From assembly GCA_050246635.1 (NCBI GenBank), contig JBFWVR010000002.1, positions 145,905 to 209,904 of the forward strand: a DNA stretch of 64,000 nt, in the 5' to 3' direction. Source of the DNA: Vicinamibacterales bacterium (GTDB lineage: Bacteria > Acidobacteriota > Vicinamibacteria > Vicinamibacterales > UBA2999). The position numbers were made by a program, and so were the translations under genes. The notes under the pieces were generated by a model. It had not been told where the DNA came from and did no database searches. It saw only the letters and a program-made list of their open reading frames with translations. Shown here piece by piece: positions 4,405 through 57,666 of this stretch (position 1 is its first letter; each line of letters begins with the position of its first letter).

Positions 4405-4431
4405 GCACACACTGAGGACACTGAACACACC
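4405..4431. repeat. 9-mer repeat, short inverted arm (ACACTGAGG ACACTGAAC ACACC)
   Basis: Reverse complement of the CAGTGTYTT units at 4552-4630. Lies 24 nt after the aguB stop. Confidence 0.75.
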
Positions 4432-4551: not shown

Positions 4552-4630
4552 GTGTCTTCAGTGTCTTCAGTGTCTTCAGTGTCTTCAGTGTGCTCAGTGT
4601 CTTCAGTGTGCTCAGTGTGCTCAGTGTTCC
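4552..4630. repeat. 9-mer tandem repeat GTGTSTTCA, 8 full units plus a partial
   Basis: GTGTCTTCA x4, then GTGTGCTCA/GTGTCTTCA alternating. Ends 32 nt before the aguA ATG. Confidence 0.9.
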
Positions 4631-13494: not shown

Positions 13495-15924
13495 TCAGGC
13501 GTCCGCCAGCGACAGCGCGTCGCGCACGGCGTCGAAGTCGTGGTCGCGCGCCACGCGCCAGCGCGTCATGCGGGGCTGCTCCGCCAGCGGCCGCTGGAGG
13601 TGCGTGCGCGCGTGCGCCGCGTCGCCACGCAACGCGAAGATGCTCGCGACGTAGTAGCGCGTCGCGCCGTCGTCCGCCCCGGCCGCGAGCCGCGCGTTGA
13701 AGGACGACAGGGCCCGCGCGAAGTGCTCGTCCGCCATCGCCCCGTCCCCCTTGGCGAGATAGGCGGCGCCCATCTTCGCGTTGAGCTCGATGAGCGTGCG
13801 CTCACGCAGCACGTGGTCGCTGGCCGACAGGAAGTCCATCTCGCGCCGGTATTCGGCGATGGCCTCGTCGTGCCATCCCCGCAGGTAGTGGACGTACCCG
13901 AGGCGGGAGTGCGCGCCGACGACGAGCACGCCCTGGGTACCCGACATCGCCTGTTCCTGGAGCACGATGGCCGCGCGCGCGGCGCGTTCGGCCTCGTCCA
14001 ACCGGCCGCTCATCGCGTCGAGGAAGGCCAGCTGCAGGTACGCGTAGCCCGACTCGGCGTTGAGGCGCACCGCCTGCTCGAGCTCGCGAATGGCCTCGTC
14101 GACGCGGCCCTCCGAGACCCAGTAGGCCCGTCCCAGCGTCTGGCGGGCCTGTGCGTTGCCGGGCTGCTCGGCGACCACGGCCTCGAGCAGCGCGATGGCC
14201 TCGGCGGTCGTCCCCTCGGCCAGCAGGCCCATGCCCAGCCGGATGCGCGCGTCCACCAGCGAGGGGTTCAGCGCCACGGCCCGTTTCAACAGCTCGATGG
14301 CCTTGCGGTTCAGGTCGGGCAGCGCCATGAACGTCGCCTTGAGCTGGTAGGCGGCGCCGAGACCCGCGATGGCGTCGGGGTAGTCGGGGGCCAGCGCGAT
14401 CGCGTGCTCGAAGAGCGCGATGGCCCGCTCGAACGACTCGCGCCCCGCCAGCCGCAGGTTCAGCATGCCGCGGGAGAAGGCCTCATAGGCCTCGAGCGAC
14501 GCCGGCTCGATCGAGACGGCGGCCGCCGCCTCGATGACACCGGAATCGATGCCCGGATCCAGCCCGCGCGCCACCTGCTGGACGAGCGCGTCCTGCAGGT
14601 CGAAGAGGGCCTCCACGGTGCCGTCGAGCTTCACGGTCGTGGCGAGGCTGCCCGTCTGCACCTCGATGACGTTCGCGGTGAAGCGTACGCGAGGGCCGAG
14701 GTGCTGGTAGCCCCCGGTGAGCACCCACCAGGCCCCGAGTCGGCGCCCGAGGTCGATGGCCTGGCGCTCGTCGAGCGCATGGCCGACGGACGAGAACGTG
14801 CGGAGCTGGTCGAAGATCTGCTCGCGTGGCATCACCGTGAGGCCCGCCACGTGCGAGAGGTCGGCGGTCAGCGACTCGGCCACGCCCTGGCCGATCCAGT
14901 CGTCCGCCGGGTCGCCCGTGATGTTGGCGAAGCTCAACACCGCCAGCGACCGTGGCCCGGACCGTGCCGGCGCGGGCGGCGGCGCCACGGGCAGGCCCGC
15001 GGCCGGGTCCGTGAAGTCGATCGGGCCGCGCCAGGTCATCGAGGCGCGTGACGAGCCGTCGCCGGTGAGGCGCCGGCGGGCATTCGCGAGGTCGACGTAG
15101 AGCTCGCGCGCGGACTGGTACCGGAACGCGGGGTTCTTCTCGAGCGACTTGCGCAGCGTCGCCTCCACGTCCGCCGGCACGGCGTAGTTGTAGCGGGCAA
15201 TCGCCTCCGGCTCGTGGTTCAGCACCCGATCGACGATCTCCGGCAGGGTCGTGCCGGGGAACGGCAGGCGCGCCGCGAGCATCTCGTAGAGCACGACCCC
15301 CAGCGCAAACAGGTCGACCCGGTGATCCACGGCGCTGCCCAGCAGCTGCTCGGGCGCCATGTAGTGCACGGTCCCGATCACCGATCCCGCCATCGTCGCG
15401 CTCCCGGCCATCGTGTGGAGGTGGTCGGCGCCGGCGGCGAACTTGGCGAGGCCGAAGTCGAGCACCTTCACGAGCTGCCGCGGCGTCAGCATGAGGTTGG
15501 CGCTCTTGATGTCCCGGTGGATGATGCCGTGGCCATGGGCCTCGTCCAGCGCGTCGGCCACCTGCATCGCGATGTCGAGGGCATCGCCGACCGCGAGCGG
15601 CCCGCGGGCGATGCGGGTCGAGAGGAGCTCGCCCTCGACGTACTCCATCGCAATGAACAGGGCGTCGTCCTGCTCGATGAGGTCGTAGGTGACCGCCACG
15701 TGCGGGGACCGCAGGACGGCCGCGGCGCGCGCCTCGCGCGCCAGCCGGGCCCGCGCCTCGGGGTCGCTGACCGCCGAGCCCGTCAGGAACTTGAGCGCGG
15801 TGCGCCGGCCAAGGCGCATGTCCTCGGCGAGGTACACCTCGCCCATGCCGCCATGGCCCAGCGGCTCGAGGATGCGGTACTGGAGGAGGGTCTGCCCGAC
15901 GAGACCCGCACGGTGGGGCACCAA
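13495..15924 (-). CDS. Ser/Thr protein kinase with C-terminal TPR repeats
   Basis: GHGGMGEVYLAED, HRDIKSANLML, DFGLAK, APE. The C-terminal half is TPR-like. Start is TTG 15924 or GTG 15921. Confidence 0.9.
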   Translation of the reverse strand: MVPHRAGLVGQTLLQYRILEPLGHGGMGEVYLAEDMRLGRRTALKFLTGSAVSDPEARARLAREARAAAVLRSPHVAVTYDLIEQDDALFIAMEYVEGELLSTRIARGPLAVGDALDIAMQVADALDEAHGHGIIHRDIKSANLMLTPRQLVKVLDFGLAKFAAGADHLHTMAGSATMAGSVIGTVHYMAPEQLLGSAVDHRVDLFALGVVLYEMLAARLPFPGTTLPEIVDRVLNHEPEAIARYNYAVPADVEATLRKSLEKNPAFRYQSARELYVDLANARRRLTGDGSSRASMTWRGPIDFTDPAAGLPVAPPPAPARSGPRSLAVLSFANITGDPADDWIGQGVAESLTADLSHVAGLTVMPREQIFDQLRTFSSVGHALDERQAIDLGRRLGAWWVLTGGYQHLGPRVRFTANVIEVQTGSLATTVKLDGTVEALFDLQDALVQQVARGLDPGIDSGVIEAAAAVSIEPASLEAYEAFSRGMLNLRLAGRESFERAIALFEHAIALAPDYPDAIAGLGAAYQLKATFMALPDLNRKAIELLKRAVALNPSLVDARIRLGMGLLAEGTTAEAIALLEAVVAEQPGNAQARQTLGRAYWVSEGRVDEAIRELEQAVRLNAESGYAYLQLAFLDAMSGRLDEAERAARAAIVLQEQAMSGTQGVLVVGAHSRLGYVHYLRGWHDEAIAEYRREMDFLSASDHVLRERTLIELNAKMGAAYLAKGDGAMADEHFARALSSFNARLAAGADDGATRYYVASIFALRGDAAHARTHLQRPLAEQPRMTRWRVARDHDFDAVRDALSLADA

Positions 15925-18242: not shown

Positions 18243-18326
18243 CAGATCAACAGGTCGATCAGCAGATAGTTCCCAGATCGCCCGATTCCAAGATCAGATC
18301 ACGAGATCACCAGATCACGAGATCAC
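18243..18326. repeat. GATC-rich low-complexity tract ending in 8-mer repeat SAGATCAC x4
   Basis: CAGATCAC GAGATCAC CAGATCAC GAGATCAC at 18295-18326. Eight GATC sites within 18245-18324. Ends 6 nt from the DUF547 stop. Confidence 0.8.
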
Positions 18327-19167: not shown

Positions 19168-19983
19168 CTATAAACGAGAGAGAAAGGCCGAGAGCCGCTC
19201 GCCGAACGCCTGCGGCTGCTCGAGGCTCGACAGGTGCCCCGCCGCCGGGATGACCGCCAGCTCGGCCCCGGGCGCCTGCGCCGCCATCGCCTCGGCATCG
19301 GATACCGGCGTGAGGGTGTCCTCGGCCCCGACCACGATCAGCAGGGGCACCGCCAGGGTGCCGAGCTCGCGAGACGAGTCCGGGCGGTCCATCATGCGCC
19401 GGATGGCCCCACGCACCGCCTCGGGCGACTGCTGGATGATGATGCGCCGCACGGTGGGCTCGAGGGCCCCGGCCTCGCGGGTGGTCGCGCCGAGGAGCTT
19501 CGGCATCATGTCGCGGCCGACGGCGCCAACGCCTTCACGGTCCACCTGCGCCAGCATCGACCGCCGGTTCGCCCGGCCTTCGGGCGAATCGGCCGTCGCA
19601 CGCGTGTCCACGAGGACCACCCCACGGACGAGCTCGGGCGCGCGCCGCAGCACCGCGAAGGTGACATACCCGCCCATCGAGACCCCGCCGACCACGGCCC
19701 CCGGGACGCCGAGCTCCGTGAGCAACGTGACCACGTCACGCGCGTAGTCGTCGATCTCGGCGCCACGATCGGTCTCCTCGATATCCGAGGAACCGCCGAA
19801 CCCGGCGAGATCGGGCGCGAGCACCCGCCAACCGGCGGGCGGCTGCTTGAGCTGGGGCTCGAACATCGCCGCCGAGAGCGGAAAGGCGTGCAGCAGCACG
19901 AGCACCGGCAGGGACGCCTCCGCCGGCGCGGTGTCGAGATACGCAATCGTCCGATCGCCGGTGTGGAGATATTGGCGGTGCAC
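19168..19983 (-). CDS. Alpha/beta hydrolase
   Basis: VLVLLHAFPLSAAMF, nucleophile elbow GVSMGG, C-terminal AGHLSSLEQP. GTG at 19983 chosen as the first start downstream of the 13-mer array; the start is uncertain. Confidence 0.75.
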   Translation of the reverse strand: MHRQYLHTGDRTIAYLDTAPAEASLPVLVLLHAFPLSAAMFEPQLKQPPAGWRVLAPDLAGFGGSSDIEETDRGAEIDDYARDVVTLLTELGVPGAVVGGVSMGGYVTFAVLRRAPELVRGVVLVDTRATADSPEGRANRRSMLAQVDREGVGAVGRDMMPKLLGATTREAGALEPTVRRIIIQQSPEAVRGAIRRMMDRPDSSRELGTLAVPLLIVVGAEDTLTPVSDAEAMAAQAPGAELAVIPAAGHLSSLEQPQAFGERLSAFLSRL

Positions 19984-20005
19984 GGTCTGATTGTATACGC
20001 CGGAG

Positions 20006-20239
20006 GTGCTGCACGAGGGTGCGGCACGCAGGTGCGGCACGGGGGTGCGGCACGGAGGTGCGGCACGGGGGTGCGGCACGAAGGTGCGGCACGGAGGTGC
20101 GGCACGAGGGTGCGGCGCGGGGGTGCGGCACGGGGGTGCGGCACGGAGGTGCGGCACGGAGGTGCGGCACGAGGGTGCGGCGCGGGGGTGCGGCACGCAG
20201 GTGCGGCACGGGGGTGCGGCACGGCGGTGCGGGACGTGT
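20006..20239. repeat. 13-mer tandem repeat GTGCGGCAC-GRRG, 18 units
   Basis: Strict 13-nt register from 20006. The variable 4-nt purine tail is GAGG/GCAG/GGGG/GGAG/GAAG. Fills the gap between the ADOP stop (20239) and the hydrolase start. Confidence 0.95.
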
Positions 20240-22662
20240 CAGTCTGCGCGCAGTGCCACTGCGGGGTCGACGCGCATCGCGCGGCGGGCGGGGACGAGGC
20301 AGGCGATGGCTCCCGCGGCCACGAGGAGCAGCGCCACCACCACATAGGGCATCGGGTCGGCCGCGCTCACGCCGAAGAGCAGGCCCGAGAGCAGGCGTCC
20401 CGTCGCCGCGGCGAGGGCCAGCCCCACGAGAATGCCGACGCCCACCTGCAGCATGCCCTGCCCCACGACCATCCCGAGCACCTGTGCCGGGCTGGCGCCG
20501 ATGGCCATGCGCACGCCGATCTCCTGCGTTCGCTGGCTCACCGCGTGGCTCAGCACACCGAACACCCCGATGGCCGCGAGCAGCAGGCCGGACGAGGCGA
20601 GCCCCGACAGCAGCCAGGCCAGCGACCGCGGCGTCGCCATGCTCTCGTCCACGACACTGGCCATGCTCCGTGTGTCGAAGAACGGCAGCGCCGGATCCAG
20701 CCGCCGAATCGTGCCCCCCAGCGCGCCAAGCGCCGCTTCCGGGGCTTCTTCCGCCCGCGCCACCAGGGCAATCTCCCGGAAGGCCGGCACCTGCCGGAGG
20801 CTGACGAAGAAGGTCGGCGTGGGCTCGACGTCGAGTCCCGAGTGCCGGTCGTCGCCCACGACCCCGACCACCTCGAAGACGCCGCTGGCGTTGCCGATAC
20901 GCACGGGCCGTCCCAGCGGATCCTCGTCGCCGAAGATCATCGTGGCCAGCCGGCGGTTGACGACCAGCACGCGCGGCGAGCCGGCCACGTCGCGGGCCTC
21001 GATGCCGCGGCCCGCCAGGACAGGCATGCCCAGCGCGTCGAAGTAGCCCTCCGTGATCCACGCGACGTTGCTGTGCGGCCGCGCCTCGGCGTCTGGCGCG
21101 GGCCGGTCGTCGCGCCAGAACTCAGTGCCCTGCCGGTTGTCGGCCAGCGGGATCGCCTCGCTGGCGCCGACGGCCGACAGGCCCGGCAACCGGCGCGCGT
21201 CGGTGAGCAACCGCTCGAGGAACTGGGTGCGCGCCGCGCCATCGACATAACGCGCGGCCGGAAGGTTCACGCGCCCGGTGACGACATGGTCCGGCTGGAA
21301 ACCCGGATCCACCCCACGCAGCGCGCGGAAGCTCTCGACGAGCAGGCCGGCCGTCACCAGCAGGCCCATCGCCAGCGCCACCTGCCCGACCACCAGCCCC
21401 TGCTGCAGGCGCAGGCCACCGCTGCCCGGGGCCGCGCCGCGCTCGTTGAGCCAGTCGCGGAGGCCGGCGCGCACCACGCGAAGCGCTGGCGCGAGTCCGG
21501 CCAGAATGGCGGCGGCCATCGACACGACGACGGCAAATGCCAGGGCCCGCGGATCGAGGGCCACCTCGCGCAGGCCCGGCACCGTCGCGGGCCCGAACCG
21601 GGCGATGATCCGGACGAGCGCAGCGGCAAGGAGCACGCCCGCCGCGCCTCCGGTGATCGCCAGGGCCAGCGACTCGACGATGACCTGGCGGGCCAGGCGT
21701 GCACGGCTCGCGCCGAGTGCCGTCCGCACCGCGAACTCCCGGCGCCGCCCGACACCGCGCGCGAGGAGCAGGTTGGCCACATTTGCCGACGCCAGCAGCA
21801 ACATGAAGCCAACGGCCAGCGACAGCAGCAGCATCGAACGACGGCTCGCCGCCGTCACCTCCTCGGTGAGGGGGTGGACCACGGCCCGCCAGTCCCGGTA
21901 ATCCGGGTGCTCCTGTTCGATCTGGGCCTGGATGGCATCCACCTCCCGCGCGGCGGCCTCCACTGTCACGCCGGGCCGCAGGCGGCCGACGACGCCGAGG
22001 TAATGGGCCCCTCGTTGCCCTGCTTCGAGATCGGTGCCGTGCGGAATCCAGAGTTCGGCGCGTTCGGCGGGCGGCGGGCCGTTGAGCGTGATCGGCGGCG
22101 GGCACTCGAACCCGGGCGGCATCACGCCGACGATGGTCGTGGGCCGGCCGTCGATGGCCACGGTGGTGCCGAGCACGGCGGGGTCGGCGGCGAAGCGCCG
22201 GCGCCACAAGCCATCGCTGAGCAGCGCGACGGCCGGCGCGTTGGCGCGATCCTCCTCGGGCCGGAAGAGCCGGCCCAGGCGCGGCTGGACGCCCAGCGCC
22301 TCCAGCAGCCCCGCGGTCACCCAGGCGCCAGGCACCTGCTCGGGATCGGTCCCCCCGACCGTGAGGCTCCGTCGGGAGAAGCCGCCGAGCGCCTCGAACG
22401 ACCGGGCCCGTGCCCGCCACTCCGCGAGGTTCGGCGGCGAGGCATACATGATCGGCAGCGGGATGTTCGGCGAGGTCTCCCAGACGGCCACGAGCCGGTC
22501 GGGCTCCGGGACCCGCAGCGGCCTCAGCAGCGCACGATCCACGACCGCGAAGATGGCCGTGTTGGCGCCAATCCCCAGCGCAAGCGTCACGACCGCGACG
22601 ACGGCAAAAGCGGGCCGGCGGATGAGCAGGCGGAGGCCGTGGCGAAGGTCCTGCAGCAGCAT
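20239..22662 (-). CDS. ADOP-family ABC-type permease (duplicated MacB/FtsX-like)
   Basis: [42 protein letters not shown]. Two MacB_PCD + FtsX halves. No ATPase gene nearby. Confidence 0.85.
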
Positions 22663-22709
22663 GGGGACAGTCTCCTCCTCCGGTTGGACGAGATCGAGCC
22701 CCGGGACGC

Positions 22710-25379
22710 TTACAGCTGATCCGTACGAAGTGTCGTCGCGGGATCGATGCGGGCGGCCCGCCGGGCGGGGAGCCAGCTGGCGCCGAGCGCCACGAGCGTG
22801 AGCCCGCCCGTGACCGCAGCGTAGGTCACCAGGTCGGTGTGCTCCACGCCGTACAGCAGGCTCGACAGCAGTCGCGTCGCGAAGACCGCCGCCAGCGCCC
22901 CGAGCGCCACCCCCGCCACTGCCAGGCGGCCCGCCTGCCCCACGATCATCGCGACCACGTCGCCGCGCCGCGCGCCGAGGGCGATGCGGATGCCGATCTC
23001 CCGCGTGCGCGCCGCGACGGCGTGCGCGAGCACCCCGTAGAGGCCGATGGCCGCGAGGAGCACCGCCGTGCCGGCGAAGACCGCGAGGACCAACATCAAC
23101 AGGCGCGGTTGCGCCGTGGCGCCGCTGGCCACCTGCGCCAGCGACCGGACCTCGAAGAGCGGCAGGTCGGGGTCGAGCGACGCCAGGATCTCGCGCGCCG
23201 GCGGAATCACGGCGGACGGTTCACCCGCCGTCCGGATGGCCATGGTCAGCCCGTCCATCGGGTACTGCGCGTGCGCGAGATAGACCGTCGGCTCCGGTTC
23301 GCTCGCGGGCCCGTCGTCCAGCACGTCGTTCACGACACCCACGACCTGCCCGCCGACCCGGTCGCCGCCGAGGCCGAGTCGCGTGCCCAGTCGCAGCTCG
23401 TGTCCCAGCGGCACGTCACCGGGCCACAGCAGCCGCGCCGCCGCCTCGCTGACCACCATCACCTGCGAGGTGTTCAGCCGGTCGGCATCGGTAAAGCCGC
23501 GCCCCCGGAGCAGCCGCATCCCGACGGCCTCGAAGTACCCCGGGGTGACCACGCGGAGTTGCACGCTCAGGCGGTCCTGCTCCTCGTCCGGGAGGCGCTG
23601 GCCGTCGACGATGGACGTCGAGAAGTAATAGCTGTAGCTCGTCAGCGGCAGGCCGATCGTGCCACCGACGGCCTCCACGCCGGGACGCTGGCGCAGGCGC
23701 GTCAGCAGCGATTCCACGAACGCGGCACGCTGGCGCGGCTCGGGGTAGCGGGAGTCGGGCAGCGAGAACGTGAACGTCTGCACACCGCGCGGGTCGACCC
23801 CGGTGTCGACCGCGGCGAGGCGGGCGAACGACCGCGCCAGCAGCCCCGCGCCGACGAGCAGGACGACCGCCAACGCGGTTTCCAGCACGATGAGCCCGCC
23901 GCGCGCCCGCTGCCGGCCGCGGTTGCCCGTCGCCCCGCCGCCCTCCTCGCGCAGGCGGCTGACCACGTCGCCGACACGCGATGCCTGCCAGGCGGGCACC
24001 GCGCCGAACAGCACCGCCACGGCCAGCGACAGCAGGGCGGTGAACAGCAGGACCGTTCCGTCGACATGGGCCTGGTCGAGCAGCGGCACACCGAGGTTGG
24101 CGTCGGCGTTCGCGCGGGCGATGAGGGCCGTTCCCCAGACGGCCAGCAACAGGCCCGCGGTTCCGCCGGCCGCGGCGAGCACCGCGCTCTCGACCAGCAG
24201 GCTCCGCAACAGGCGTGGGCGGTCGGCGCCGACGGCCGCGCGAATCGCCAGCTCACGGCTCCGGCCGACGGCGCGTGTCAGCACCAGGCCAGCGACGTTC
24301 ACGCACACGATCAGCAGCACGAACCCGACCGCCCCGACGAGCACCAGCATGGCGGGACGCACGCGCCCCACGAGGGCGTCGCGCAGGCCGTGCACCGACA
24401 CGGTCTGGTCGCGGTCCTGGCTCGGGTACGCCACGGCGAGTCGCGATGCGATGCCGCGCAGGTCCGCGCGCGCGGCAGCAGGCGTCTGCCCCGCATCGAC
24501 ACGACCCACGACGCTCAGGTAATGTGCGCCGCGCTGTGTCGCCAGGTCGTCCGCGTCGAAACGCAAGGGCAACCAGACCTCCGCCTCGAGCGGATAGCCG
24601 AACCCGTCGGGCATCACGCCGACGACTTCGCGGCTGATGCCGTCCAGCAGGATCCGCCGGCCCACCACGTCCTCACGTCCGCCGAACCGGCGTTGCCACA
24701 AGCCGTGCGACAGCACGGCAATCGCCCCCCCGCCGACCGCATCGTCGTCCGGCCCGATCGTGCGCCCGAGCGCACTCCGCACGCCCATCGTCGGGAAGAA
24801 GCCGCCGGTCACGTACGCCGCGGGAATCTGGGTGGGCTCCCCGTCTCCCGTGAGAGGCACAGAGGTGCTGTAGTAGGCGCCGAGCTCGGCGAGCGTGCGG
24901 TTCTCGGCCCGGTAGTCGGTGAAGTCGGGCGGTGACAGCGTCCCACCGACGCGATCGGGGTTGCTGGTCGGCGTGGTGTAGACGCGAACCAGGCGGTCCG
25001 GCTCGGGGTACGGGAGCGGACGCGCCAGCACCGTGTATGCGGCGCTGAAGATGGCCGCGTTCGCCCCGATGCCGAGGGCCAGCGTGAGGATCGTGACGAG
25101 GGCGAAGCCCGGGCGGCGAGCCAGGGCGCGGACGGCGTGACGTAGATCCTGCACCAGCATCTCGAGCCTCCAGTGGTCCCACCTGAGCCAGAGCGCGTGG
25201 GCGATGCTGCCGACGCTCCTCGCCAGGAGTCGCAGCTCTGCCCGGACGTCAGCCGCGTGGCGACTCGCACTCGCCAGCTCCGCGCGCCATTCGCGCCGCC
25301 AGTCGGCGCGGCAGGCCTCGGGCACGATTGCACTCGCGCCACGCACGATGGCGGCCGCGATTCGGGAGATCGTGGTCAT
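22710..25379 (-). CDS. ADOP-family permease with ~70-aa N-terminal extension
   Basis: [38 protein letters not shown] follows the extension ([14 protein letters not shown]). Its ATG overlaps the upstream stop (ATGA). Confidence 0.85.
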
Positions 25380-28030
25380 TCGGCCCGCAGCGTCACGGCA
25401 GGATCGGTCCCGACCGCCCGGCGAAGCGGAACCACCGCCGCGAGGCCGGCGGCCACCAGCAGGACGGCCACCGCGGCCGAGAGCGCCGCCGGATCCGTGG
25501 GCGCCACCTCGAACCAGAGCCCCCGCGCGAGGTCGAGCAACGCCACGGCGGCACCGAGCCCAATGAGCAACCCGGTCAGCACCAGCCGCACCGCCTCGAA
25601 CCCGATGAGCCGGCCGACGTCGCGACGGGTCGCGCCGAGGGCCATGCGGATCCCCATCTCACGCGTGCGCCGGGCCACGCCCATCGAGATCACCCCGAAC
25701 AGGCCGATGCCGGCCAGCGCCAGCGCCGTGACCGCGAAACCGGCGATCAGCGCGGACGAGAAGCGGCGTGGCGCCACCGTCCCGGCCACGACCGCTTCGA
25801 GCGGCGCGAGGTCGTACGCCGGCACCAGCGGATCGATGTCCGCGAGGGCGTCGCGTACGGCGCCGGTGAGGGCCGTCGGATCCACGCCGGCGGCGCGCAC
25901 GACGACCGTCATCCGGCCCGCGGGCGATTGCCGGTGCGAGTCGTAGGCCTCCGGTTGCACCGGAGCATCGAGGCCGTCCTGCTTCTCGTTGCCGACCACA
26001 CCGACGATGGTGAGCCAGTGCTGGTCGGCCGCGCCCGGCCGATCGTAGGCAATGCGTTGCCCGACCGGGTCTTCGCCCGCGAAGTACCGATCGACGAGCG
26101 CCTGGTTGACGATGCAGACGGGCGGCGACGTCGCCGTGTCCTGTGGCCCGAAGGGCCGGCCGGCGACGAGGGGCACGCCGATCGCCTCGAAGTAGCCGTC
26201 GGTGACGTCCTTGTGCCGGAGCTCGCGCCCCCAGACCCCGGGCTGGCGCTCGATCGCGAGATCGCCGGTCCACTGGTAGCCCTCGAGTGCCATGCGCGTG
26301 GAGGCGCCGGCCACCGCGACGCCTGGAATCGCCGCAAGGCGCGCTTCGAGCGCGTCGAAGTACCGCGACCGCACGCGGTCGTCTCCGTAGCGCTCGCCCG
26401 CGAGCGTAACGTGGAACGTGAGGGCACCGGACGGCTCGAAGCCGGGATCGACCGCCAGCAGGCGGTCGAGGCTGCGCAGCGTGAGCGCCGCCGCCGCGAG
26501 CAGGACGACCGCGACGGCGACTTCGCCGATCACGAGCAGCCGCCGCGCCTGCCAGGCGCCCGCCGACGTGCTGCGCGTCCCGGCATGCAGGGCATCGGCC
26601 GTGGTGTCTCGCGCGCTGCGGAGCGCGGGCAGGAGACCGGCCAGCACCGTCGTCGCGGCGGCGAGCGCGGCGACGAAGGCCGTCGCGCGCCAGTCGACGC
26701 CGACCTCCGAAAGGCGCGGGAGCGCGGGCGGCGCCGCGAGCACGAGCACCCGCACGAGTCCGACGGCCAGGGCGAGCCCCGCGGCCGACCCGAGGACCGA
26801 CAGGAGCAGGCTCTCGGCCAGGAGCTGCCGCAGCAGGCGGGCCCGGCTCGCGCCGAGTGCCATGCGCACCGCCATCTCGCGCCCCCGCTCGAGCCCGCGA
26901 GCCAGCAGGAGCCCGGCGACGTTCGCGCACACGACCAGGAGCACCAGGCCGAGCGCCGAGGCAAAGGCCAGCAGCACCGGACGCACCGGCCCGACGAACC
27001 AGCTCTTCAGCGGCCCGACGCCGACACCCATGTGCGTGTTGGTGTCGGGATAGGCCTGCTCGAGCTCGCGCGCGATTACGTCCATCTCGGCCTGCGCCGC
27101 CGTCACGGTCACGCCAGGCGCCAGGCGCGCGATCGCCCGCACGTAGTGAGCCAGCCGGCGGCTCCAGTCCTGCGGACCGAAACCGAGTGGCATCCACAGG
27201 TCGATGGCGGCGTTGTCGAAGACGAACGCCGCAGGCATCACACCGATCACCTCGACGGGCGTGCCGTTCAACTCCACGCGCCGGCCGACGATGTCCGCCG
27301 CCCCACCGAATCGCTGCTGCCACAGCCGGTGGCTCAGCACCACCGCCCGGCGCTCGCCGGGCTGGTCGTCGTCCGGACGGAACGTCCGCCCGAGCTGCGG
27401 CGCGGCGCCAAGCAGGTCGAAGAACCCGGCCGAGACACGGCTCGCGCGCAGGACCTCCGCCGTCGAGCCGTCGCCGAGCGTGACGAGGCTCGAGCCCGCG
27501 CCGCGTCCCTGCTCGCCGACGTAGACGGCCCATCCGTCGAACGAGCGGGCCTGCGCCTGCCAGTCCTTGAGGTTCGCGGGCGCGATGGTGGCCTCCGTCC
27601 AGCCCAGATCGGGGTTCGTCTCCCAGAGCTGCACGAGCCGATCGGGCTGGGCATACGGGAGCGGCCTCAGCAGCACCGCGTCCACGACCGTGAAGATGGC
27701 CGCGTTGGCGCCGATGCCGATGGCCAGTGTCAGCGCCGTCACCACGGTGAACGTCGGGCGGTGCGCGAGCGTGCGCCACGCGTGCCGGATGTCCTGCCAC
27801 AACATGCCGTGCCTCCAGGGCTCGCACCGGAGCCAGATCGCGTGGATGAGCGCACCGGCAAGGCGCCGGCCGAGTATCGCGTCGCGACCGTGCGTGGCGG
27901 CACGCCATGCCGCCTCGGCGCGCCACTCGCGCAGCCAGTCGGCGCGCCACGCGCCAGGGACGAGCCGTGCCACCGCACGCAGGTACCGATCGAGCGACAC
28001 CGGCACGCGGGCGGGGTCGGTCGTGGTCAT
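25376..28030 (-). CDS. ADOP-family permease with N-terminal extension
   Basis: ATG at 28030 overlaps the padR stop (ATGA). WRADWLREWRAEAA extension, then [38 protein letters not shown]. Confidence 0.85.
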   Translation of the reverse strand: MTTTDPARVPVSLDRYLRAVARLVPGAWRADWLREWRAEAAWRAATHGRDAILGRRLAGALIHAIWLRCEPWRHGMLWQDIRHAWRTLAHRPTFTVVTALTLAIGIGANAAIFTVVDAVLLRPLPYAQPDRLVQLWETNPDLGWTEATIAPANLKDWQAQARSFDGWAVYVGEQGRGAGSSLVTLGDGSTAEVLRASRVSAGFFDLLGAAPQLGRTFRPDDDQPGERRAVVLSHRLWQQRFGGAADIVGRRVELNGTPVEVIGVMPAAFVFDNAAIDLWMPLGFGPQDWSRRLAHYVRAIARLAPGVTVTAAQAEMDVIARELEQAYPDTNTHMGVGVGPLKSWFVGPVRPVLLAFASALGLVLLVVCANVAGLLLARGLERGREMAVRMALGASRARLLRQLLAESLLLSVLGSAAGLALAVGLVRVLVLAAPPALPRLSEVGVDWRATAFVAALAAATTVLAGLLPALRSARDTTADALHAGTRSTSAGAWQARRLLVIGEVAVAVVLLAAAALTLRSLDRLLAVDPGFEPSGALTFHVTLAGERYGDDRVRSRYFDALEARLAAIPGVAVAGASTRMALEGYQWTGDLAIERQPGVWGRELRHKDVTDGYFEAIGVPLVAGRPFGPQDTATSPPVCIVNQALVDRYFAGEDPVGQRIAYDRPGAADQHWLTIVGVVGNEKQDGLDAPVQPEAYDSHRQSPAGRMTVVVRAAGVDPTALTGAVRDALADIDPLVPAYDLAPLEAVVAGTVAPRRFSSALIAGFAVTALALAGIGLFGVISMGVARRTREMGIRMALGATRRDVGRLIGFEAVRLVLTGLLIGLGAAVALLDLARGLWFEVAPTDPAALSAAVAVLLVAAGLAAVVPLRRAVGTDPAVTLRAE

Positions 28031-28329
28031 GCCTGCGACCGCGCCGGCCGCGCCGGCAGCAGTGAGCGGTAGTGCGCCGCCGCTTCGTCGAGCGCCCGCA
28101 CCCCAGGCGAGGTGAGGCGGTAGTACCGCCTCGCGGGCCGGCCCTCGGCGTGCGCTGCTTCCTCGTCTTCCCACGCCGAGCGGAGATAGCCGTCGCGTTC
28201 GAGGCGGCTCAGGGCCGGATACACGGTGCCGCTGGGCAGCCCCGTGTGGTCGATGATGTCGAACCCGTACTCGACGCCGTCCCGGATGGCCTGGAGCACG
28301 GCAACAGCGGTGATGGAGAGGCGGCGCAC
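28027..28329 (-). CDS. PadR-family transcriptional regulator (acidobacterial type)
   Basis: AVLQAIRDGVEYGFDIIDHTGLPSGTVYPALSRLERDGYL is a winged-helix PadR signature. First gene of the padR-ADOPx3 string. GTG start. Confidence 0.85.
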   Translation of the reverse strand: MRRLSITAVAVLQAIRDGVEYGFDIIDHTGLPSGTVYPALSRLERDGYLRSAWEDEEAAHAEGRPARRYYRLTSPGVRALDEAAAHYRSLLPARPARSQA

Positions 28330-28331
28330 GG

Positions 28332-28352
28332 CATAGTAGTAATGCTACATAG
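28332..28352. promoter_or_regulatory. AT-rich island upstream of padR with GTAG-N5-CTAC dyad (candidate operator/promoter)
   Basis: CATAGTAGTAATGCTACATAG starts 3 nt upstream of the padR GTG. Contains an imperfect dyad at 28336-28348 and a CATAG direct repeat. Confidence 0.25.
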
Positions 28353-28412
28353 GGTCGCCGTCAAGACGCGTCGGGTGCGGTAGAGGATTACGGTGTGACG
28401 AATTCGGGGAGA

Positions 28413-28441
28413 GCAGAAAAGGGGTCAGACCCCTTTTCTGC
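28413..28441 (-). terminator. Hairpin terminator downstream of the RraA-like gene
   Basis: Perfect 12-bp stem GCAGAAAAGGGG / CCCCTTTTCTGC with loop TCAGA. The GGGG/CCCC core is followed by a U-rich run on either strand. Confidence 0.65.
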
Positions 28442-28609
28442 CGCACCCTCGTGCCGCACCCTCGTGTGGCACCTCCGTGCGGCACCTCCGTGCAGCACCT
28501 CCGTGCAGCACCTCCGTGCGCACCACCGTGTGGCACCCCCGTGCAGCACCTCCGTGCCGCACCCTCGTGTGGCACCACCGTGTGGCACCTCCGCGCGGCA
28601 CCTCCGTGC
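28438..28609. repeat. 13-mer tandem repeat GTGYRGCAC-CTCC, 13 units (one of 12 nt)
   Basis: Same family as 20006-20239 but in reverse-complement orientation, with a pyrimidine tail on the plus strand. Abuts the RraA-like stop codon at 28609. Confidence 0.95.
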
Positions 28610-29322
28610 TACGTCTCTATCGCCCCGCGCCGCGCGCGGATGTGATCACGGAACGTGAGATCGGGACTGGCCTTGCGCGCGGCCAGGTAGCCCTCGACGT
28701 CGAACTGCTGCCACAACCGCTCCCCGGCCGCCAGCCTGGCCGCCTGCCCCGCCTCCCGCTCCGCCAGCTGCCGCGCCATGTCCACGACCCGCACCACCTC
28801 CTTCGACTCCACCACCATCGCGCCATCGTCATCCAGGAAGATGACGTCGTCGCGCGTCACGGTGGTGTGGCTGCCGATGGAGGCGGCCTGGAGCGCGTGT
28901 GGGGATCGCTGGCGCAACTCCACGGGGCCGACCGGGCACGTGCCGAGTGACCACACCGGGATGCCGATCCGGCGGATGGCGGGCCCGTCACGGTGCGCGC
29001 CCCAGACCACGATGCCGGCCATGCCGGCCGCCAGCGCCTCGGCGGCAATCATGTCGCCGATACATCCTTCGTCCAGCCGGCCGACGTTCTCGATGACGAG
29101 CACGTCGCCGGGCGCCGCGTCGTGGATGGCCTCGAGGAACACGTCGACGCTCCCGGCATGTTTCGCCGGGCGCGCGGGACCGGCGACACGCTGCCCCTCC
29201 GCGATCGGACGGAGCCCCGACCCGGCCGTCCGCGGTGGCAGGCCGAGCGCCACGCAGGCGTCCGCGATGAAGGGGGTGGCCCAGTCGAAGCCGGCGAGCA
29301 GGTCGGACACGGAAGCGGTCAT
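28609..29322 (-). CDS. RraA-family protein (RraA/aldolase-like fold) with C-terminal extension
   Basis: GDVLVIENVGRLDEGCIGDMIAAEALAAGMAGIVVWGAHRD and IPVWSLGTCPVGP resemble the RraA/DlpA family. Confidence 0.7.
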   Translation of the reverse strand: MTASVSDLLAGFDWATPFIADACVALGLPPRTAGSGLRPIAEGQRVAGPARPAKHAGSVDVFLEAIHDAAPGDVLVIENVGRLDEGCIGDMIAAEALAAGMAGIVVWGAHRDGPAIRRIGIPVWSLGTCPVGPVELRQRSPHALQAASIGSHTTVTRDDVIFLDDDGAMVVESKEVVRVVDMARQLAEREAGQAARLAAGERLWQQFDVEGYLAARKASPDLTFRDHIRARRGAIET

Positions 29323-34066: not shown

Positions 34067-34116
34067 CACCGGCAACGATACGCCCGGACACCGGCAGACA
34101 ACGGTCCCTTCGGGGG

Positions 34117-34133
34117 GCACGGAGGCACGGAGA
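34117..34133. repeat. 8-mer repeat GCACGGAG x2 with degenerate continuation to about 34170
   Basis: GGCACGGAGGCACGGAG, then AAGGCAGG GAGATACG GAACACGG. Same unit as 41583-41614. Confidence 0.55.
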
Positions 34134-34200
34134 AGGCAGGGAGATACGGAACACGGCAAGCAGGCAGGAGAGCACGCACGCCCGTCCACCCGTGCGTGAC

Positions 34201-37345: not shown

Positions 37346-37393
37346 ACGAAGGTCACGAAGGGTACGAAGGGCGCGAAGGGCACGAAGGGCGCG
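37346..37393. repeat. 9-mer tandem repeat ACGAAGGGN x5 (left arm of inverted pair)
   Basis: ACGAAGGTC ACGAAGGGT ACGAAGGGC GCGAAGGGC ACGAAGGGC. 37346-37388 is identical to 46759-46801. Preceded by CTGATCGA (37337-37344). Confidence 0.95.
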
Positions 37394-37414: not shown

Positions 37415-38242
37415 TCACTGCAACGTGTCGAACCGTCGCTTCAGGCGAGACCGTTCGTGCTCCGCCGCCTCCACATCCTGTCTCGTGCGACTGATCCGGC
37501 TCGACAGGTCGCGCACCTCGGCTGCGGCTTCGTCCAGCGCGGCCTGGCGGCGGTCGCGTTCACGTTCGGCGCGCCCCAGCGCTTTGGTCAGGCTCTCGAG
37601 AGCCTTCTCGACCTCGCGGCTCCTCGCGACGGCCGCGTCGAGCTCCGCCTGGGCCGTTGCGACCGCGCGGGCCTTCTCCTTTGCCGCGGCGGCGTCCGTG
37701 GCCGCGCCCTTCTGCAACCGCAGGGCCGGCGGGGCCTTGCTCGCCCGCGGCGCCGCCTTCGGGGCGCGCGCGATGATGCCGGCGTAGGCCTCGAAGCCCG
37801 TCGCCGGCGTGAGCGGTTTCGCGAGCCGCCCGAACGGCTCCGCCGTCGGCAACGCGCGCAGGGTATCGGTCACCGCGGCCAGGACGGCGGGCGACGCCGT
37901 CTCGCCACTCTCGGCCAGCGCGGCCTTCGCCGCGTCGTTGGCTCGCGCCAGCGCCTCCCCGTGCGCGGTCTCGGCGCCGCGCAGGTCCGCGTCTTCCCCG
38001 CTGACGAGCCGCCGGTGCGCCACTCGCAGCGCCTCGGACGCCTTCACGAGCCGATCGAACACGACGCGGTCGCGCCAATACACCTGGTTCACCGCCCACG
38101 CCGCGAGCTGCGGCTTCACGAGCTTCCTGATCGCGGCGCCCTCCGCGCCGCCGGCCCGCTTCGCCAGCGCATTCCGCGCCTCCGTGAAGCCTTCCGGCGG
38201 CCCCTGATAAAGCGCATCGATCTCATCGTCGAACGAGGACAT
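37415..38242 (-). CDS. Hypothetical Ala/Arg/Glu-rich protein with C-terminal coiled coil
   Basis: 275-aa ORF MSSFDDEIDALYQGPPEGFTEARNALAKR...KPQLAAWAVNQVYW. The C-terminal 90 aa are heptad-like (AQAELDAAVARSREVEKALESLTKAL...). I recognise no family. Confidence 0.6.
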   Translation of the reverse strand: MSSFDDEIDALYQGPPEGFTEARNALAKRAGGAEGAAIRKLVKPQLAAWAVNQVYWRDRVVFDRLVKASEALRVAHRRLVSGEDADLRGAETAHGEALARANDAAKAALAESGETASPAVLAAVTDTLRALPTAEPFGRLAKPLTPATGFEAYAGIIARAPKAAPRASKAPPALRLQKGAATDAAAAKEKARAVATAQAELDAAVARSREVEKALESLTKALGRAERERDRRQAALDEAAAEVRDLSSRISRTRQDVEAAEHERSRLKRRFDTLQ

Positions 38243-38311: not shown

Positions 38312-38356
38312 GTGCTTCGTGCCCTTCGAGTCCTTCGGACCCTTCGTGTCCTTCGA
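38312..38356. repeat. 9-mer tandem repeat NCCCTTCGN x5 (right arm, inverted)
   Basis: GTGCTTCGT GCCCTTCGA GTCCTTCGG ACCCTTCGT GTCCTTCGA then TCAG. 38339-38358 is identical to 46914-46933. Abuts and includes the nrdJ stop. Confidence 0.95.
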
Positions 38357-41221
<2,865 letters not shown>

Positions 41222-41405
41222 TGGACCTCCGTCGAATGGCGACACCTCTCCCCTCTGGGGTGTTCGCCCTAGCTATGCGTGACTCTTAGGCTTGGTGCGC
41301 GCGGGAGAAGTCGTCTGACACACGCTCGTCCGGCCTCGTTCCGCTCGGGCTGGCCACAGATTGCTGGGAGAAATCCGCGTCCAGTCGCATTCGCGCGCGA
41401 CGCCC

Positions 41406-41434
41406 AATATGCGCCTGTGAAAATCCGTTGTCAA
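41406..41434 (-). promoter_or_regulatory. Candidate sigma70 promoter of nrdJ (TTGACA-17 nt-CATATT)
   Basis: On the minus strand, TTGACA is at 41434-41429 and CATATT at 41411-41406 with a 17-nt spacer. This would give a ~180-nt leader. Confidence 0.4.
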
Positions 41435-41442
41435 GCTGTGAA

Positions 41443-41458
41443 CCACAAGATGTTGCGT
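41443..41458 (-). promoter_or_regulatory. Candidate NrdR box 1
   Basis: The minus strand reads ACGCAACATCTTGTGG, matching 12/16 of the NrdR consensus acaCwAtATaTwGtgt. Confidence 0.5.
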
Positions 41459-41474
41459 TTTTCTTTTAGGTCAG

Positions 41475-41490
41475 ACGCAAGATGCTGCGA
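41475..41490 (-). promoter_or_regulatory. Candidate NrdR box 2
   Basis: ACGCAAGATGCTGCGA matches 10/16 of the consensus. Centre-to-centre distance to box 1 is 32 bp, the spacing typical of tandem NrdR boxes. Confidence 0.45.
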
Positions 41491-41582
41491 AGTTCCACAG
41501 TTTTCGGATGTTTCGATATATTTTCGCTTAACGGATGGGTTTCTGCAACGTAAACCGGCGCCTGACCACGATCGCAATGCCT

Positions 41583-41614
41583 ACACGGAGACACGGAGGC
41601 ACGGAGACACGGAG
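41583..41614. repeat. 8-mer tandem repeat RCACGGAG x4 (left arm)
   Basis: ACACGGAG ACACGGAG GCACGGAG ACACGGAG. Confidence 0.9.
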
Positions 41615-41740: not shown

Positions 41741-41790
41741 CTCCGTGCCTCCGTGTCTCCGTGCCTCCGTGTCTCCGTGCCTCCGTGTCC
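41741..41790. repeat. 8-mer tandem repeat CTCCGTGY x6 (right arm, inverted)
   Basis: CTCCGTGC/CTCCGTGT alternate six times. Reverse complement of 41583-41614, with a 126-nt spacer. Lies 31 nt downstream of the lipoprotein gene stop. Confidence 0.9.
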
Positions 41791-46160: not shown

Positions 46161-46808
46161 CTACCCCTGCCGGAACAGTTCCACCACGTCGGTCCGCCTG
46201 CGCAAGTCGGAGATCCAGTCGGTGATGAGCTCGCTGCGGCGCGCGGCGCCGAGCCGTTCGCGGATGAGCCCCGTGGCCTCCTCGAAGGGAAGGCCGCCGC
46301 GTTCGAACTCCTCGCGGTGCGCATTGAAGTAGGCGGCGATCTCCTGGTCGGTGGGGATGCCGGCGACGGCGAAGCGCTGGTCGAGGTACGCCTGGATGCG
46401 CAGGTCGTCACGCACCCACGCGCGCAGGCGCTCGGCCGTGAACCCGCCCTCGGCGAGCGCACGCGCGAAGGCCTCGTCCGAGTCGAAGCGCTGGCGTGCG
46501 ACGGCCAGGCGGGCCTCCACCGCCGCGGGCGCCGGCTCTGGCGGTGCGTAGCGCTGGACCTCCCGGAGCACGAGCTGCCGATCGACCAGCCGTGCCGCCG
46601 CGGCCGCGATCGGATCCTCCGCCCCCGTGCCATCGACCAGCCCCAGCGCGAGGGCGGTGCGGGCATCACTGAGCGTGATCACCTGCCCCCCGACGATGGC
46701 GAGCGTGCGTTCGATCAGTTCCTGGTGCGCGTGACTGACGGTGGGCGCGAGAAGGAGTACGAAGGTCACGAAGGGTACGAAGGGCGCGAAGGGCACGAAG
46801 GACGTCAT
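46161..46808 (-). CDS. SurA N-terminal-domain-like periplasmic chaperone (no PPIase domain)
   Basis: MTSFVPFAPFVPFVTFVLLLAPTVSHA signal, then AIVGGQVITLSD...EIAAYFNAHREEF, helical and SurA_N-like. An alternative start at 46940 (TGATG with the bamA stop) would add a GTK-repeat N-terminus. Confidence 0.55.
   Translation of the reverse strand: MTSFVPFAPFVPFVTFVLLLAPTVSHAHQELIERTLAIVGGQVITLSDARTALALGLVDGTGAEDPIAAAAARLVDRQLVLREVQRYAPPEPAPAAVEARLAVARQRFDSDEAFARALAEGGFTAERLRAWVRDDLRIQAYLDQRFAVAGIPTDQEIAAYFNAHREEFERGGLPFEEATGLIRERLGAARRSELITDWISDLRRRTDVVELFRQG
46750..46803. repeat. 9-mer tandem repeat ACGAAGGGN (left arm), overlaps the signal-peptide codons of the surA-like gene
   Basis: GAGAAGGAGT ACGAAGGTC ACGAAGGGT ACGAAGGGC GCGAAGGGC ACGAAGGAC. 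The unit order is identical to 37346-37388. Confidence 0.95.
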
Positions 46809-46865
46809 GCGCCCCGTCACCACAGGATGCCAGGCGCGCGCCCTCTCGTCCGCCGGCGCGCCGCC

Positions 46866-46931
46866 CACCTTCGTGCCGCCCTTCGTGCCCTTCGTGCCCT
46901 TCGTGTCCTTCGTACCCTTCGTGTCCTTCGA
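46866..46931. repeat. 9-mer tandem repeat NCCCTTCGT x7 (right arm, inverted)
   Basis: ..ACCTTCGT GCCGCCCTTCGT GCCCTTCGT GCCCTTCGT GTCCTTCGT ACCCTTCGT GTCCTTCGA. 62-nt spacer to the left arm. Lies 8 nt from the bamA stop. Confidence 0.95.
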
Positions 46932-46939
46932 TCCAGTCA

Positions 46940-53965: not shown

Positions 53966-54556
53966 CTACTCCACGACCACCAGGACCGTACCTGCCTCGA
54001 CCGACTGCCCCTCGGTCGCGTGGACCTCGCGCACCCGGCCCTCTCGCACGGCCTTCAGCTCGTTTTCCATCTTCATGGCTTCGACGACGACGAGGCCCTG
54101 TTTGGCCTTCACCTCGTCGCCCGCCGCCACGAGCACCCGCACCACCTTGCCGGGCATCGGCGCCGTCACGCGCTGCGGCCCGCTCCCCGCCGCGCCGCCC
54201 GCGTCCCGGCCACGCCGGCCCAGCCCGGCCGTCCGCACCGAGAGCGGCACGGTGACCCCGTTCACGTGGACGTCGAACCGGCCCGGCTCACGCTGCGGCA
54301 CGAGCGAGGCCTCGACCCGCCGCGTCGGCACGATCTCATCTGTGCCATCTGTCCCATCTGTGGCCCCAGTGGCATCTGTGCCATCTGTGCCATCTGTGGC
54401 CCCTGTGGCCCCGAGCAGCAGCGACCAGTCGGCGCCGCCGAGCGCCCGTGCGTCCACGACATGCCGCGCGCCGTCCACCACGACGACGAAGCGGTCGCCC
54501 TCACGCGTCACCACGACGGTGCGTGTCTTCTCCCCGGCGTCGATCTGCACCTGCAT
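53966..54556 (-). CDS. Biotin carboxyl carrier (biotinyl/lipoyl domain) protein
   Basis: C-terminal [14 protein letters not shown]...[16 protein letters not shown] (biotinyl-Lys motif). Atypical N-terminal domain. An internal (TDG/ATG) tract is encoded by the 9-mer array. Confidence 0.8.
54337..54408. repeat. 9-mer tandem repeat CATCTGTGS x8, inside coding sequence
   Basis: CATCTGTGC CATCTGTCC CATCTGTGG CCCCAGTGG CATCTGTGC CATCTGTGC CATCTGTGG CCCCTGTGG. On the minus strand it is in frame as [25 protein letters not shown]. Confidence 0.9.
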
Positions 54557-57518: not shown

Positions 57519-57630
57519 CGGCTTTGCCTTTCGGCGGGGGGAGCCGCTGCGGGGGATGAGCGACCTTATTGTGTGGGGAGGGAGGTTGTCAACAGAGGGA
57601 GCGGTAGCTCGCCAGCAACCGCGGCCACAC

Positions 57631-57666
57631 ACACCGAAGACACTGAACACACCGAACACACTGAAA
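57631..57666. repeat. 9-mer repeat, short inverted arm (ACACCGAAG ACACTGAAC ACACCGAAC ACACTGAAA)
   Basis: Four units, reverse complement of the 57796-57925 units. Same family as 4405-4431. Confidence 0.85.

Follow-up and report, generated by a model that had tools for sequence, protein, structure and literature searches.

Why should two arrays of the same 13-nucleotide (nt) repeat stand in opposite orientation at the two ends of a single operon? The question is raised by a 64,000-nt stretch of DNA from a Vicinamibacterales bacterium (assembly GCA_050246635.1, contig JBFWVR010000002.1, positions 145,905 to 209,904; hereafter the window), in which a padR regulatory gene and three genes for ADOP-type permeases lie between a RraA-like gene and an alpha/beta hydrolase gene. 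The original prediction, made from the sequence alone, had described the two arrays as exact brackets of these four genes and had proposed that they delimit a transcriptional or a recombinational unit, possibly one that had been duplicated through the repeats. In our reading, to which we give a probability of about 0.55, the arrays are a matched inverted pair of intergenic minisatellites that punctuate the boundaries of the operon. Genes were called by GC content at third codon positions (GC3) and their domains were assigned by Pfam, with which 41 open reading frames (ORFs) of the window were scanned. All genes of the locus are on the minus strand, in the order RraA-like gene, array 2, hairpin, padR, three ADOP-type permease genes, array 1, and hydrolase. 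Related loci or lineages, which were compared at the RraA-side and hydrolase-side junctions, are designated by L-numbers. The features of the locus are as follows.

19168-19983, minus strand: alpha/beta hydrolase gene, start at 19983; the conserved downstream neighbour, part of a hydrolase-DUF547-SDR block.
19990-19995, minus strand: a −10-like TACAAT box; the GTG start of the hydrolase (19983) follows 6 nt downstream.
20001-20238, minus strand: array 1, about 18 units of the 13-mer, in the C-rich form (GTGCCGCAC-CYYC) on the sense strand.
20239-22662, minus strand: ADOP-3 permease gene, with orthologues in L097 and L107.
22710-25379, minus strand: ADOP-2 permease gene, with an orthologue in all operon-bearing relatives examined (50-61% identity).
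25376-28030, minus strand: ADOP-1 permease gene (MacB_PCD and FtsX domains), with no clear orthologue in L097, L098, L105, or L107.
28027-28329, minus strand: padR transcriptional regulator gene (PF03551).
28330-28364, minus strand: padR promoter/operator, identified by reading, with TTGACG (−35) followed by CTATGTAGCATTACTAC.
28413-28441, minus strand: hairpin with a perfect 13-bp stem and a 3-nt loop, GCAGAAAAGGGGU-loop-ACCCCUUUUCUGC (A4G4...C4U4).
28438-28609, minus strand: array 2, with about 13 units from the 13-mer family of array 1, in the G-rich form GGAG-GTGCNNCAC on the sense strand.
28609-29322, minus strand: RraA-like gene, the conserved upstream neighbour, from gene calls and Pfam.

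The exact bracketing of the padR-ADOP operon by two opposite arrays was confirmed. Tandem Repeats Finder reported a 13-nt array at 20001-20236 (18.2 copies, 86% matches, score 339) and a second one at 28439-28609 (13.2 copies, 83% matches). By direct reading, the plus strand has GTGCGGCAC-GRRG units in array 1 and GTGYNGCAC-CYYC units in array 2, and an inverted-repeat search found complementarity of 79-89% between arms that reach 91 nt and are separated by about 8.2-8.4 kb. The consensus of the 13-mer is GTGCGGCACGRRG. Each unit carries a 4+4 half-palindrome, GTGC-N-GCAC, with a 1-nt centre, and structure can form only between units. A two-unit pattern with up to two mismatches gave 44 matches, all of them in the two arrays, against 0.04 expected from shuffled sequences, and these two are the only 13-mer arrays among the approximately 45 intergenic regions of the window. 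Array 2 is more heterogeneous in its core variants than array 1. The sense RNA of array 1 is 56% C and 24% G (C/G 2.33 over 238 nt), and that of array 2 is 47% G and 27% C.

Each array fills precisely the space from a stop codon to the terminator or promoter that follows. Array 1 begins 2-3 nt past the stop codon of ADOP-3 (tca, 20239-20241) and its far end is 5 nt ahead of the TACAAT box of the hydrolase; a TAnnAT box is present at the equivalent position in seven relatives (L096, L098, L097, L016, L017, L103, and L105). Array 2 is in contact with the RraA-like stop codon (cta, 28609-28611), and at its inner end the first unit shares bases with the right arm of the hairpin. The original prediction of a perfect 12-bp hairpin fused to this array was right as to the perfect pairing and the fusion, while the stem is 13 bp. 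The hairpin looks like a bidirectional intrinsic terminator. When its 6-bp GGGGUC core is taken as the stem, the tail is UUUUCUGC, and a terminator consensus scan gave no call. The padR promoter motif recurs in the relatives as TTGACN...ATGTAGCAATACTAC. The form TTGACN-N~15-ATGTAGCAWTACTAC, with an internal GTAG-N5-CTAC palindrome, is common to L097, L098, L105, and L107, and it is likely to be the autoregulatory site of PadR.

Several other identities of the arrays were considered and discarded. A coding repeat was ruled out by the period of 13, and the ORF at 19168-20196, which extends into array 1, is an artefact of the PRAAPPCRT type. The arrays are not CRISPR arrays, since CRISPRs have repeats of 23-50 nt with unique spacers and the 13-nt units are contiguous without spacers. 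A phage origin was rejected since a three-unit 13-mer pattern had no match in viral contigs. No motif of four runs of at least three G with loops of up to 12 nt was found on either strand of the arrays, which speaks against G-quadruplex arrays, and Rfam gave no match at the gathering threshold across the whole window.

Whether the two arrays belong together can be judged from the related loci, where the junctions carry the following arrays.

Window: 13-mer G-form x13 on the RraA side; 13-mer C-form x18 on the hydrolase side.
L096: about 3.5 G-form and 2 C-form 13-mers on the hydrolase side, with the same terminal CGTATACAAT as in the window.
L098-100: none on the RraA side; a 13-nt C-rich array x2.5-3.5 on the hydrolase side, against the ADOP stop.
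L097: 8-mer G-form on the RraA side; none on the hydrolase side.
L103: 8-mer G-form on the RraA side; AGATCACC/ACATCACC-type C-form on the hydrolase side.
L105: 8-mer G-form on the RraA side; AGATCACC/ACATCACC-type C-form on the hydrolase side.
L016: CTGCCTAC x9.6 on the hydrolase side.
L107: none on the RraA side.

Array 1 thus has short orthologues in place, and the 13-mer arm on the RraA side was seen in the genome of the window only. In L105, one 8-mer family occurs at five consecutive junctions, in the G-form after RraA, padR, and ADOP-1 and in the C-form after the last ADOP; a C-form remnant just ahead of the hydrolase is separated from the latter array by three inserted genes. These are minus-strand genes at 16900-20023 of L105 for a 438-aa protein, a methyltransferase, and a family 2 glycosyltransferase, and their position between the main C-form array and the remnant suggests that they were inserted into the array itself. 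The arms in L103 form a mirrored inverted repeat, with 96% complementarity between the outer segments over 25 nt and pairing between the inner ones. Since an unrelated 8-mer in L105 and L103 shows the same layout of G-form and C-form at the same two junctions, the matched bracket around the operon is probably not due to chance. The composition of the sense strand is also kept across unrelated units, G-rich after RraA in four to five lineages and C-rich before the hydrolase in five to six. At another orthologous junction, between DUF547 and SDR, the window, L016, L028, L031, and L097 have unrelated units. Because the units differ between orthologous intergenic regions, the arrays evidently arise and turn over in place.

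The two 13-mer arrays are members of a larger class, which in our reading takes up dispensable DNA behind stop codons, as far as the following terminator or promoter, across the genomes of Vicinamibacterales. In 690 kb of related loci there are about 222 arrays with units of 7-16 nt, nearly all intergenic, and the window has at least 15 short-period arrays. Those outside the padR-ADOP locus include the following.

4407-4430 and 4552-4627: intergenic short-period arrays, a close inverted pair.
41583-41614 and 41741-41789: intergenic short-period arrays, a close inverted pair.
57629-57665 and 57802-57924: intergenic short-period arrays, a close inverted pair.
18296-18326: intergenic short-period array.
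34116-34144: intergenic short-period array.
37346-37390 and 38315-38356: 9-mer arms that bracket a gene for a 275-aa protein at 37415-38242.
46745-46945, minus strand: close inverted pair of ACGAAGGGC 9-mers (46759/46878) between the genes for BamA and a SurA-like protein, overlapping coding sequence.
54337-54409: 9-mer array CATCTGTGC x7-8, in frame in the biotin carboxyl carrier protein (BCCP) gene (53966-54556).

The spacers of the first three pairs are 120-140 nt. Among the 222 arrays, 45 have an inverted partner within 400 nt and 19 have a direct partner within that distance. The inverted pairs are handed: the purine-rich arm leads in 29 of the 32 raw rows (p = 2.6e-6), and the ratio is about 24:3 without duplicate rows; the G-rich arm leads in 28 of 34. 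The main exception to the G-rich-first order is the ACACTGA family, found at two loci 53 kb apart, yet its purine-rich arm is still first. Because an inverted pair reads identically on both strands, this handedness is intrinsic to the pair and is not a polarity relative to genes, and for the same reason a rule of purine arm first relative to transcription was dropped. The 13-mer bracket has the handedness of the close pairs, of bidirectional intrinsic terminators, and of the hairpin at 28413-28441. A rule for each gene, with the G-form after stops and the C-form before starts, was rejected as well, as single arrays are divided about 50/50 and L004 also contradicts it.

The 9-mer arms around 37415-38242 had been likened to the 13-mer bracket. 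The arms are real, and the gene that they enclose is a resident and not an insertion: it encodes a helical hypothetical protein that is found only in Vicinamibacterales, and it is syntenic in the relatives, between the ribonucleotide reductase (RNR) gene and an MFS gene. Insertion of this gene between the arms was therefore rejected. Many of its homologues are on contigs of 1-1.9 kb, as if the assemblies break at repeats on both sides, and short-read contigs of the clade often end at or inside arrays (L001 breaks off 118 nt after the stop of RraA, and L016 begins in an 8-mer array). A 41-mer is identical in the 9-mer arms at 37346 and 46759, which are 9.4 kb apart. Since identical arms are found in neighbouring intergenic regions, arms are evidently copied locally between such regions. 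The pair at 46.8 kb is not present in the closest relative, L101, and in the window it folds as one long hairpin (−125.5 kcal/mol, z = −8.6). The array after RNR is purine-rich and is followed by a conserved hairpin, which is the same layout as that of array 2 and its hairpin. The leader at 41380-41560, upstream of the class II RNR gene, is AT-richer and contains two similar boxes at a distance of about 30 nt, CACAAGATGTTGCG and ACGCAAGATGCTGCG, which we take to resemble NrdR boxes; it had no Rfam match, and hence no cobalamin riboswitch was detected in it.

Two arrays of the window contribute to proteins. The inner arm of the 46.8-kb pair encodes the signal-peptide core MTSFVPFAPFVPFVTFVLLLAPTVSHA of the SurA-like protein, made of FVP repeats, and the outer arm would encode an N-terminal extension of (TKG)n if the start at 46940, in an ATGA overlap, is used. 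As the SurA-like protein of L101 has an ordinary signal peptide, with a 34-nt intergenic region, that of the window is a recent replacement derived from the array. The array in the BCCP gene encodes a linker of GTD repeats upstream of the biotinyl/lipoyl domain. Its unit family (GCACAGATG) also occurs in the BamA-SurA intergenic region of L101.

How such arrays might arise and what they might do can be outlined as follows. The arrays would grow by slippage, and their arms may be seeded or homogenized between nearby intergenic regions via gene conversion or template switching. The lasting orientation would be that of a bidirectional terminator, in which purines dominate the 5' arm and pyrimidines the 3' arm, and the close pairs might act as U-tract-poor, terminator-like hairpins. 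At the padR-ADOP locus, the G-rich array 2 would be the 3' untranslated region of the RraA-like mRNA, ahead of the terminator-like hairpin and the padR promoter, and the C-rich, 13-nt-periodic array 1 after the stop of the last permease could load Rho and halt read-through ahead of the hydrolase promoter. Rho is encoded in the window itself (1270-2589, with Rho_N, Rho_RNA_bind, and ATPase domains), and the sense RNA of array 1 has the composition of a Rho utilization (rut) site, which is a C-rich, G-poor tract of at least about 80 nt. Punctuation of transcription units is the likely role of the arrays as far as sequence can indicate, and the original prediction that they delimit a transcriptional unit agrees with the matched arrays at both boundaries and with the repetition of the layout by an unrelated 8-mer in L105 and L103. 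We also put forward, much more tentatively, that Vicinamibacterales might use fast-evolving, handed inverted arms as a general punctuation. These would be U-tract-independent bidirectional terminators or insulators, the C-rich arms would serve as Rho entry sites or in long-range RNA stems, the two arms would co-evolve across whole operons, with units being replaced and the G-rich/C-rich complementarity of both boundaries restored (independently for the 13-mer here and the 8-mer in L105 and L103), and they would also feed new peptide segments.

Outside the window, a scan of a genome collection found the 13-mer family at five loci in the Acidobacteria metagenome-assembled genome (MAG) SJ750 and at one locus in a Vicinamibacterales MAG. 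The arrays in SJ750 adjoin selA and genes for thioredoxin-like, TPR, AI-2E, and lipoprotein products, and they reach a density of 3-4 per 8 kb in many unrelated intergenic regions. The window has only one padR-ADOP cluster, and the clusters of L097, L098, L107, and L031 have one arm or none. A specific tie between the arrays and ADOP genes is not upheld by these results. The original prediction had named arrays at unrelated sites, together with ADOP clusters lacking them, as the pattern that would speak against such a tie, and this is largely what was found.

A number of observations weigh against punctuation by a matched pair. The arms of the two arrays are only 79-89% complementary and have no variant order in common, and neighbouring 13-mer arrays in SJ750 follow one another in direct, G>C, or C>G order. 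L004 has the G-form, not the C-form, against its TACAAT box, and among lone arrays between co-directional genes, G-rich and C-rich ones are about equally frequent. Strict sigma-70 promoter scans and simple terminator scans called nothing at either junction, including the hairpin. The RNA of array 1 is predicted to be partly structured (−109.7 kcal/mol, z = −5.9) with a diffuse ensemble (centroid −45), and it is not an ideal entry site for Rho. As L103 and L105 have one 8-mer family in common, the independent matched brackets number only two. Finally, the operon-bearing L097 and L098 carry one arm and L107 carries none, so the bracket is dispensable.

A serious rival, although a clearly less probable one, is a purely neutral origin, in which slippage fills unconstrained DNA, RecA-type gene conversion makes neighbouring arrays alike, and the handedness comes from the copying mechanism (for example, fold-back of a G-rich nascent strand) and not from selection. 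The rapid turnover of units at orthologous sites is what such a process would give, and the arrays run up to stop codons and promoter boxes as if they were bounded solely by selection on the neighbours. Relatives cope with one arm or none, in-frame arrays are tolerated in the BCCP linker and in a signal peptide, and the arms around 37415-38242 are merely core-complementary in L101. What a neutral process explains poorly is that strand composition at the junctions is kept across unrelated unit families, that handedness is as strong as 24:3, and that purine-rich arrays are repeatedly followed by a terminator-like hairpin. It is unlikely that the bracket is a simple coincidence, with two independent members of an abundant 13-mer family flanking the operon in opposite orientation. 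The SJ750 arrays, which lie in many unrelated intergenic regions and in all relative orientations, would allow this, as would the different core variants of the two arms and their lack of a common variant order. However, by a rough estimate the chance that both arrays flank one operon in this orientation is 1-2%, arrays of the same family cluster locally, and the layout recurs at the same junctions with the unrelated 8-mer in L105 and L103, where the arms of L103 are mirrored. Still less probable is a long-range RNA stem, in which the G-form and the C-form would make a duplex of about 140 bp, in a read-through transcript or in trans, that loops out the operon for RNase III processing or insulation, like the stems on either side of 16S and 23S rRNA. 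Cofolding of the RNAs of arrays 1 and 2 formed 144 intermolecular pairs and gained −143.5 kcal/mol, whereas a control in direct orientation gained −10.9; close pairs fold into single long hairpins (z = −8.6, as above); and inverted arrays of one family also bracket single genes (37346/38315 in the window, the SDR gene in L016, and L103). Against such a stem, array 2 is separated from the operon by the hairpin and the padR promoter, which makes one spanning transcript doubtful, complementarity is not kept in L101 at the pair orthologous to that at 37.3/38.3 kb, and some relatives have no second arm.

Least credible by far is the idea that the arrays are terminal inverted repeats of a mobile cassette or foldback-type transposon that moves the operon or duplicates ADOP clusters. 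In its favour, long inverted arms (up to 91 nt) flank the block, RraA directly adjoins the hydrolase without the padR-ADOP block in L017-19 and L106, and the junction is prone to rearrangement, with three genes inside the C-form array of L105 and the synteny of L101 broken right after RraA. The arms, however, also exist singly, on the hydrolase side in L098 and on the RraA side in L097, and the operon occupies the same junction in six relatives. The order hydrolase-DUF547-SDR is conserved in about 70 metagenome loci, the synteny RraA-padR-ADOP(1-3)-hydrolase was found in L097, L098/99, L105, and L107, and in L096, whose hydrolase is 78% identical, the C-terminus of an ADOP adjoins the hydrolase. 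In L103, a 71-codon ORF at 15660-15875, between RraA and the hydrolase and inside the mirrored 8-mer arms, is a C-terminal ADOP/FtsX remnant (...PTRRLLHLSPVAALRGE*), the trace of an imprecise deletion of an ancestral padR-ADOP operon. The comparison of synteny that had been suggested with the original prediction thus placed the operon block at the same junction in the relatives. The three ADOPs of the window are 39-40% identical to each other, and ADOP-2 and ADOP-3 have separate orthologues in the relatives. By these comparisons, the operon is evidently ancestral and vertically inherited, and its ADOPs are old paralogues that were not generated by the arrays. No transposase, integrase, or Y1_Tnp domain was found by Pfam in the 41 ORFs scanned in these 64 kb of the genome, and the block itself encodes PadR and three permeases only. 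On their outer sides the arrays are bounded by the RraA stop codon and the −10 box of the hydrolase, with no target-site duplication. Conserved synteny, the L103 remnant, the age of the paralogues, and the lack of a transposase together led us to reject both the cassette and the repeat-mediated duplication of ADOP genes, as the original prediction had imagined them. Two related ideas were also abandoned. Insertion of the operon into the spacer of a pre-existing close pair, first hinted at by L017-19, does not fit closer relatives that hold the operon or L103 with its remnant. An inversion switch was rejected since no relative has an inverted operon or hydrolase; the minus-strand hydrolase in L107 was a mis-called ORF.

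The padR-ADOP locus is a striking example, and more interesting than its bracket is the clade-wide class of handed, paired, and fast-evolving intergenic minisatellites to which it belongs. Should the arrays function as boundary elements, they would tell how a very G+C-rich, U-tract-poor lineage ends and insulates its transcripts with elements whose sequence is free and whose strand composition and pairing are kept. If they are neutral, they would reveal an unusual mutational regime, in which minisatellites expand and are copied in inverted form with a fixed handedness, a regime with a cause in replication or repair. Vicinamibacterales are abundant soil bacteria with almost no genetics, and a descriptive rule would aid the annotation of their operons and terminators. 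In addition, the arrays break short-read assemblies, so that MAGs are fragmented at gene boundaries, and they feed coding novelty, such as the signal peptide rebuilt from FVP repeats and the GTD repeats of the BCCP linker.

How do these arrays compare with known repeats? Our literature search turned up no account of such arrays for Vicinamibacteria or Acidobacteria, and neither the short tandemly repeated repetitive (STRR) sequences of cyanobacteria, nor the repetitive extragenic palindromes (REP) and bacterial interspersed mosaic elements (BIME), nor the repeats of Borgs and archaea fit them as a family. STRR sequences were reportedly described by Mazel and colleagues in 1990 and in later work. 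Like the arrays here, they have short tandem units, several families per genome, and many intergenic sites, often just downstream of genes; unlike them, they are heptamers of heterocystous cyanobacteria, whereas the units of Vicinamibacterales are 7-16 nt, and 13 nt at the locus. We know of no description of STRR sequences with inverted pairing of a fixed purine-first handedness, or with matched arms across an operon.

Another comparison is with bidirectional intrinsic terminators and with the hairpins, poor in U-tracts, that have been suggested to act as terminators in high-G+C bacteria. They are intergenic, with a 5' arm rich in purines and a 3' arm rich in pyrimidines. The close pairs have such arms on both strands and lie between genes, and the A4G4/C4T4 hairpin at the locus has that form. 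The pairs differ in that their stems are made of tandem units, with up to about 60-120 nt per arm and usually without a U-tract, and at the padR-ADOP locus the arms are 8.2 kb apart and do not make a single local hairpin. In the Foldback transposons of eukaryotes, the long terminal inverted repeats consist of short tandem repeats and may enclose genes. In contrast, the locus has neither a transposase nor a target duplication, and the genes between its arms are residents with conserved synteny.

REP and BIME sequences are palindromes of 20-40 bp with a GTAG or CGTC tag, mobilized by REP-associated tyrosine transposases (RAYTs) (PMC3733652). They are similarly extragenic, placed after stops, of alternating orientation, and able to form RNA or DNA hairpins, and roles in termination, stabilization of mRNA 3' ends, and supercoiling have been proposed for them (PMC3733652). 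Unlike REPs, the contiguous 13-mer cannot form a hairpin alone and whole arrays pair; there is no GTAG or CGTC in GTGCGGCACGRRG and no RAYT among the 41 ORFs of the window. Borgs carry pervasive tandem repeats (bioRxiv 10.1101/2022.05.18.492195), and Methanococcus and Natrialba have intergenic repeats of 6-11 bp (PMC4060949). All of these come from archaea or extrachromosomal elements; they are A-rich and nearly perfect, and each is confined to one locus. They resemble the arrays here in being fast-evolving, formed independently at each locus, intergenic, strand-biased, and in frame where the unit is a multiple of three, giving low-complexity peptides. The arrays described here differ from them in being on a bacterial chromosome, G+C-rich, and imperfect (83-93% matches), with families that are common to several loci and that form inverted pairs.

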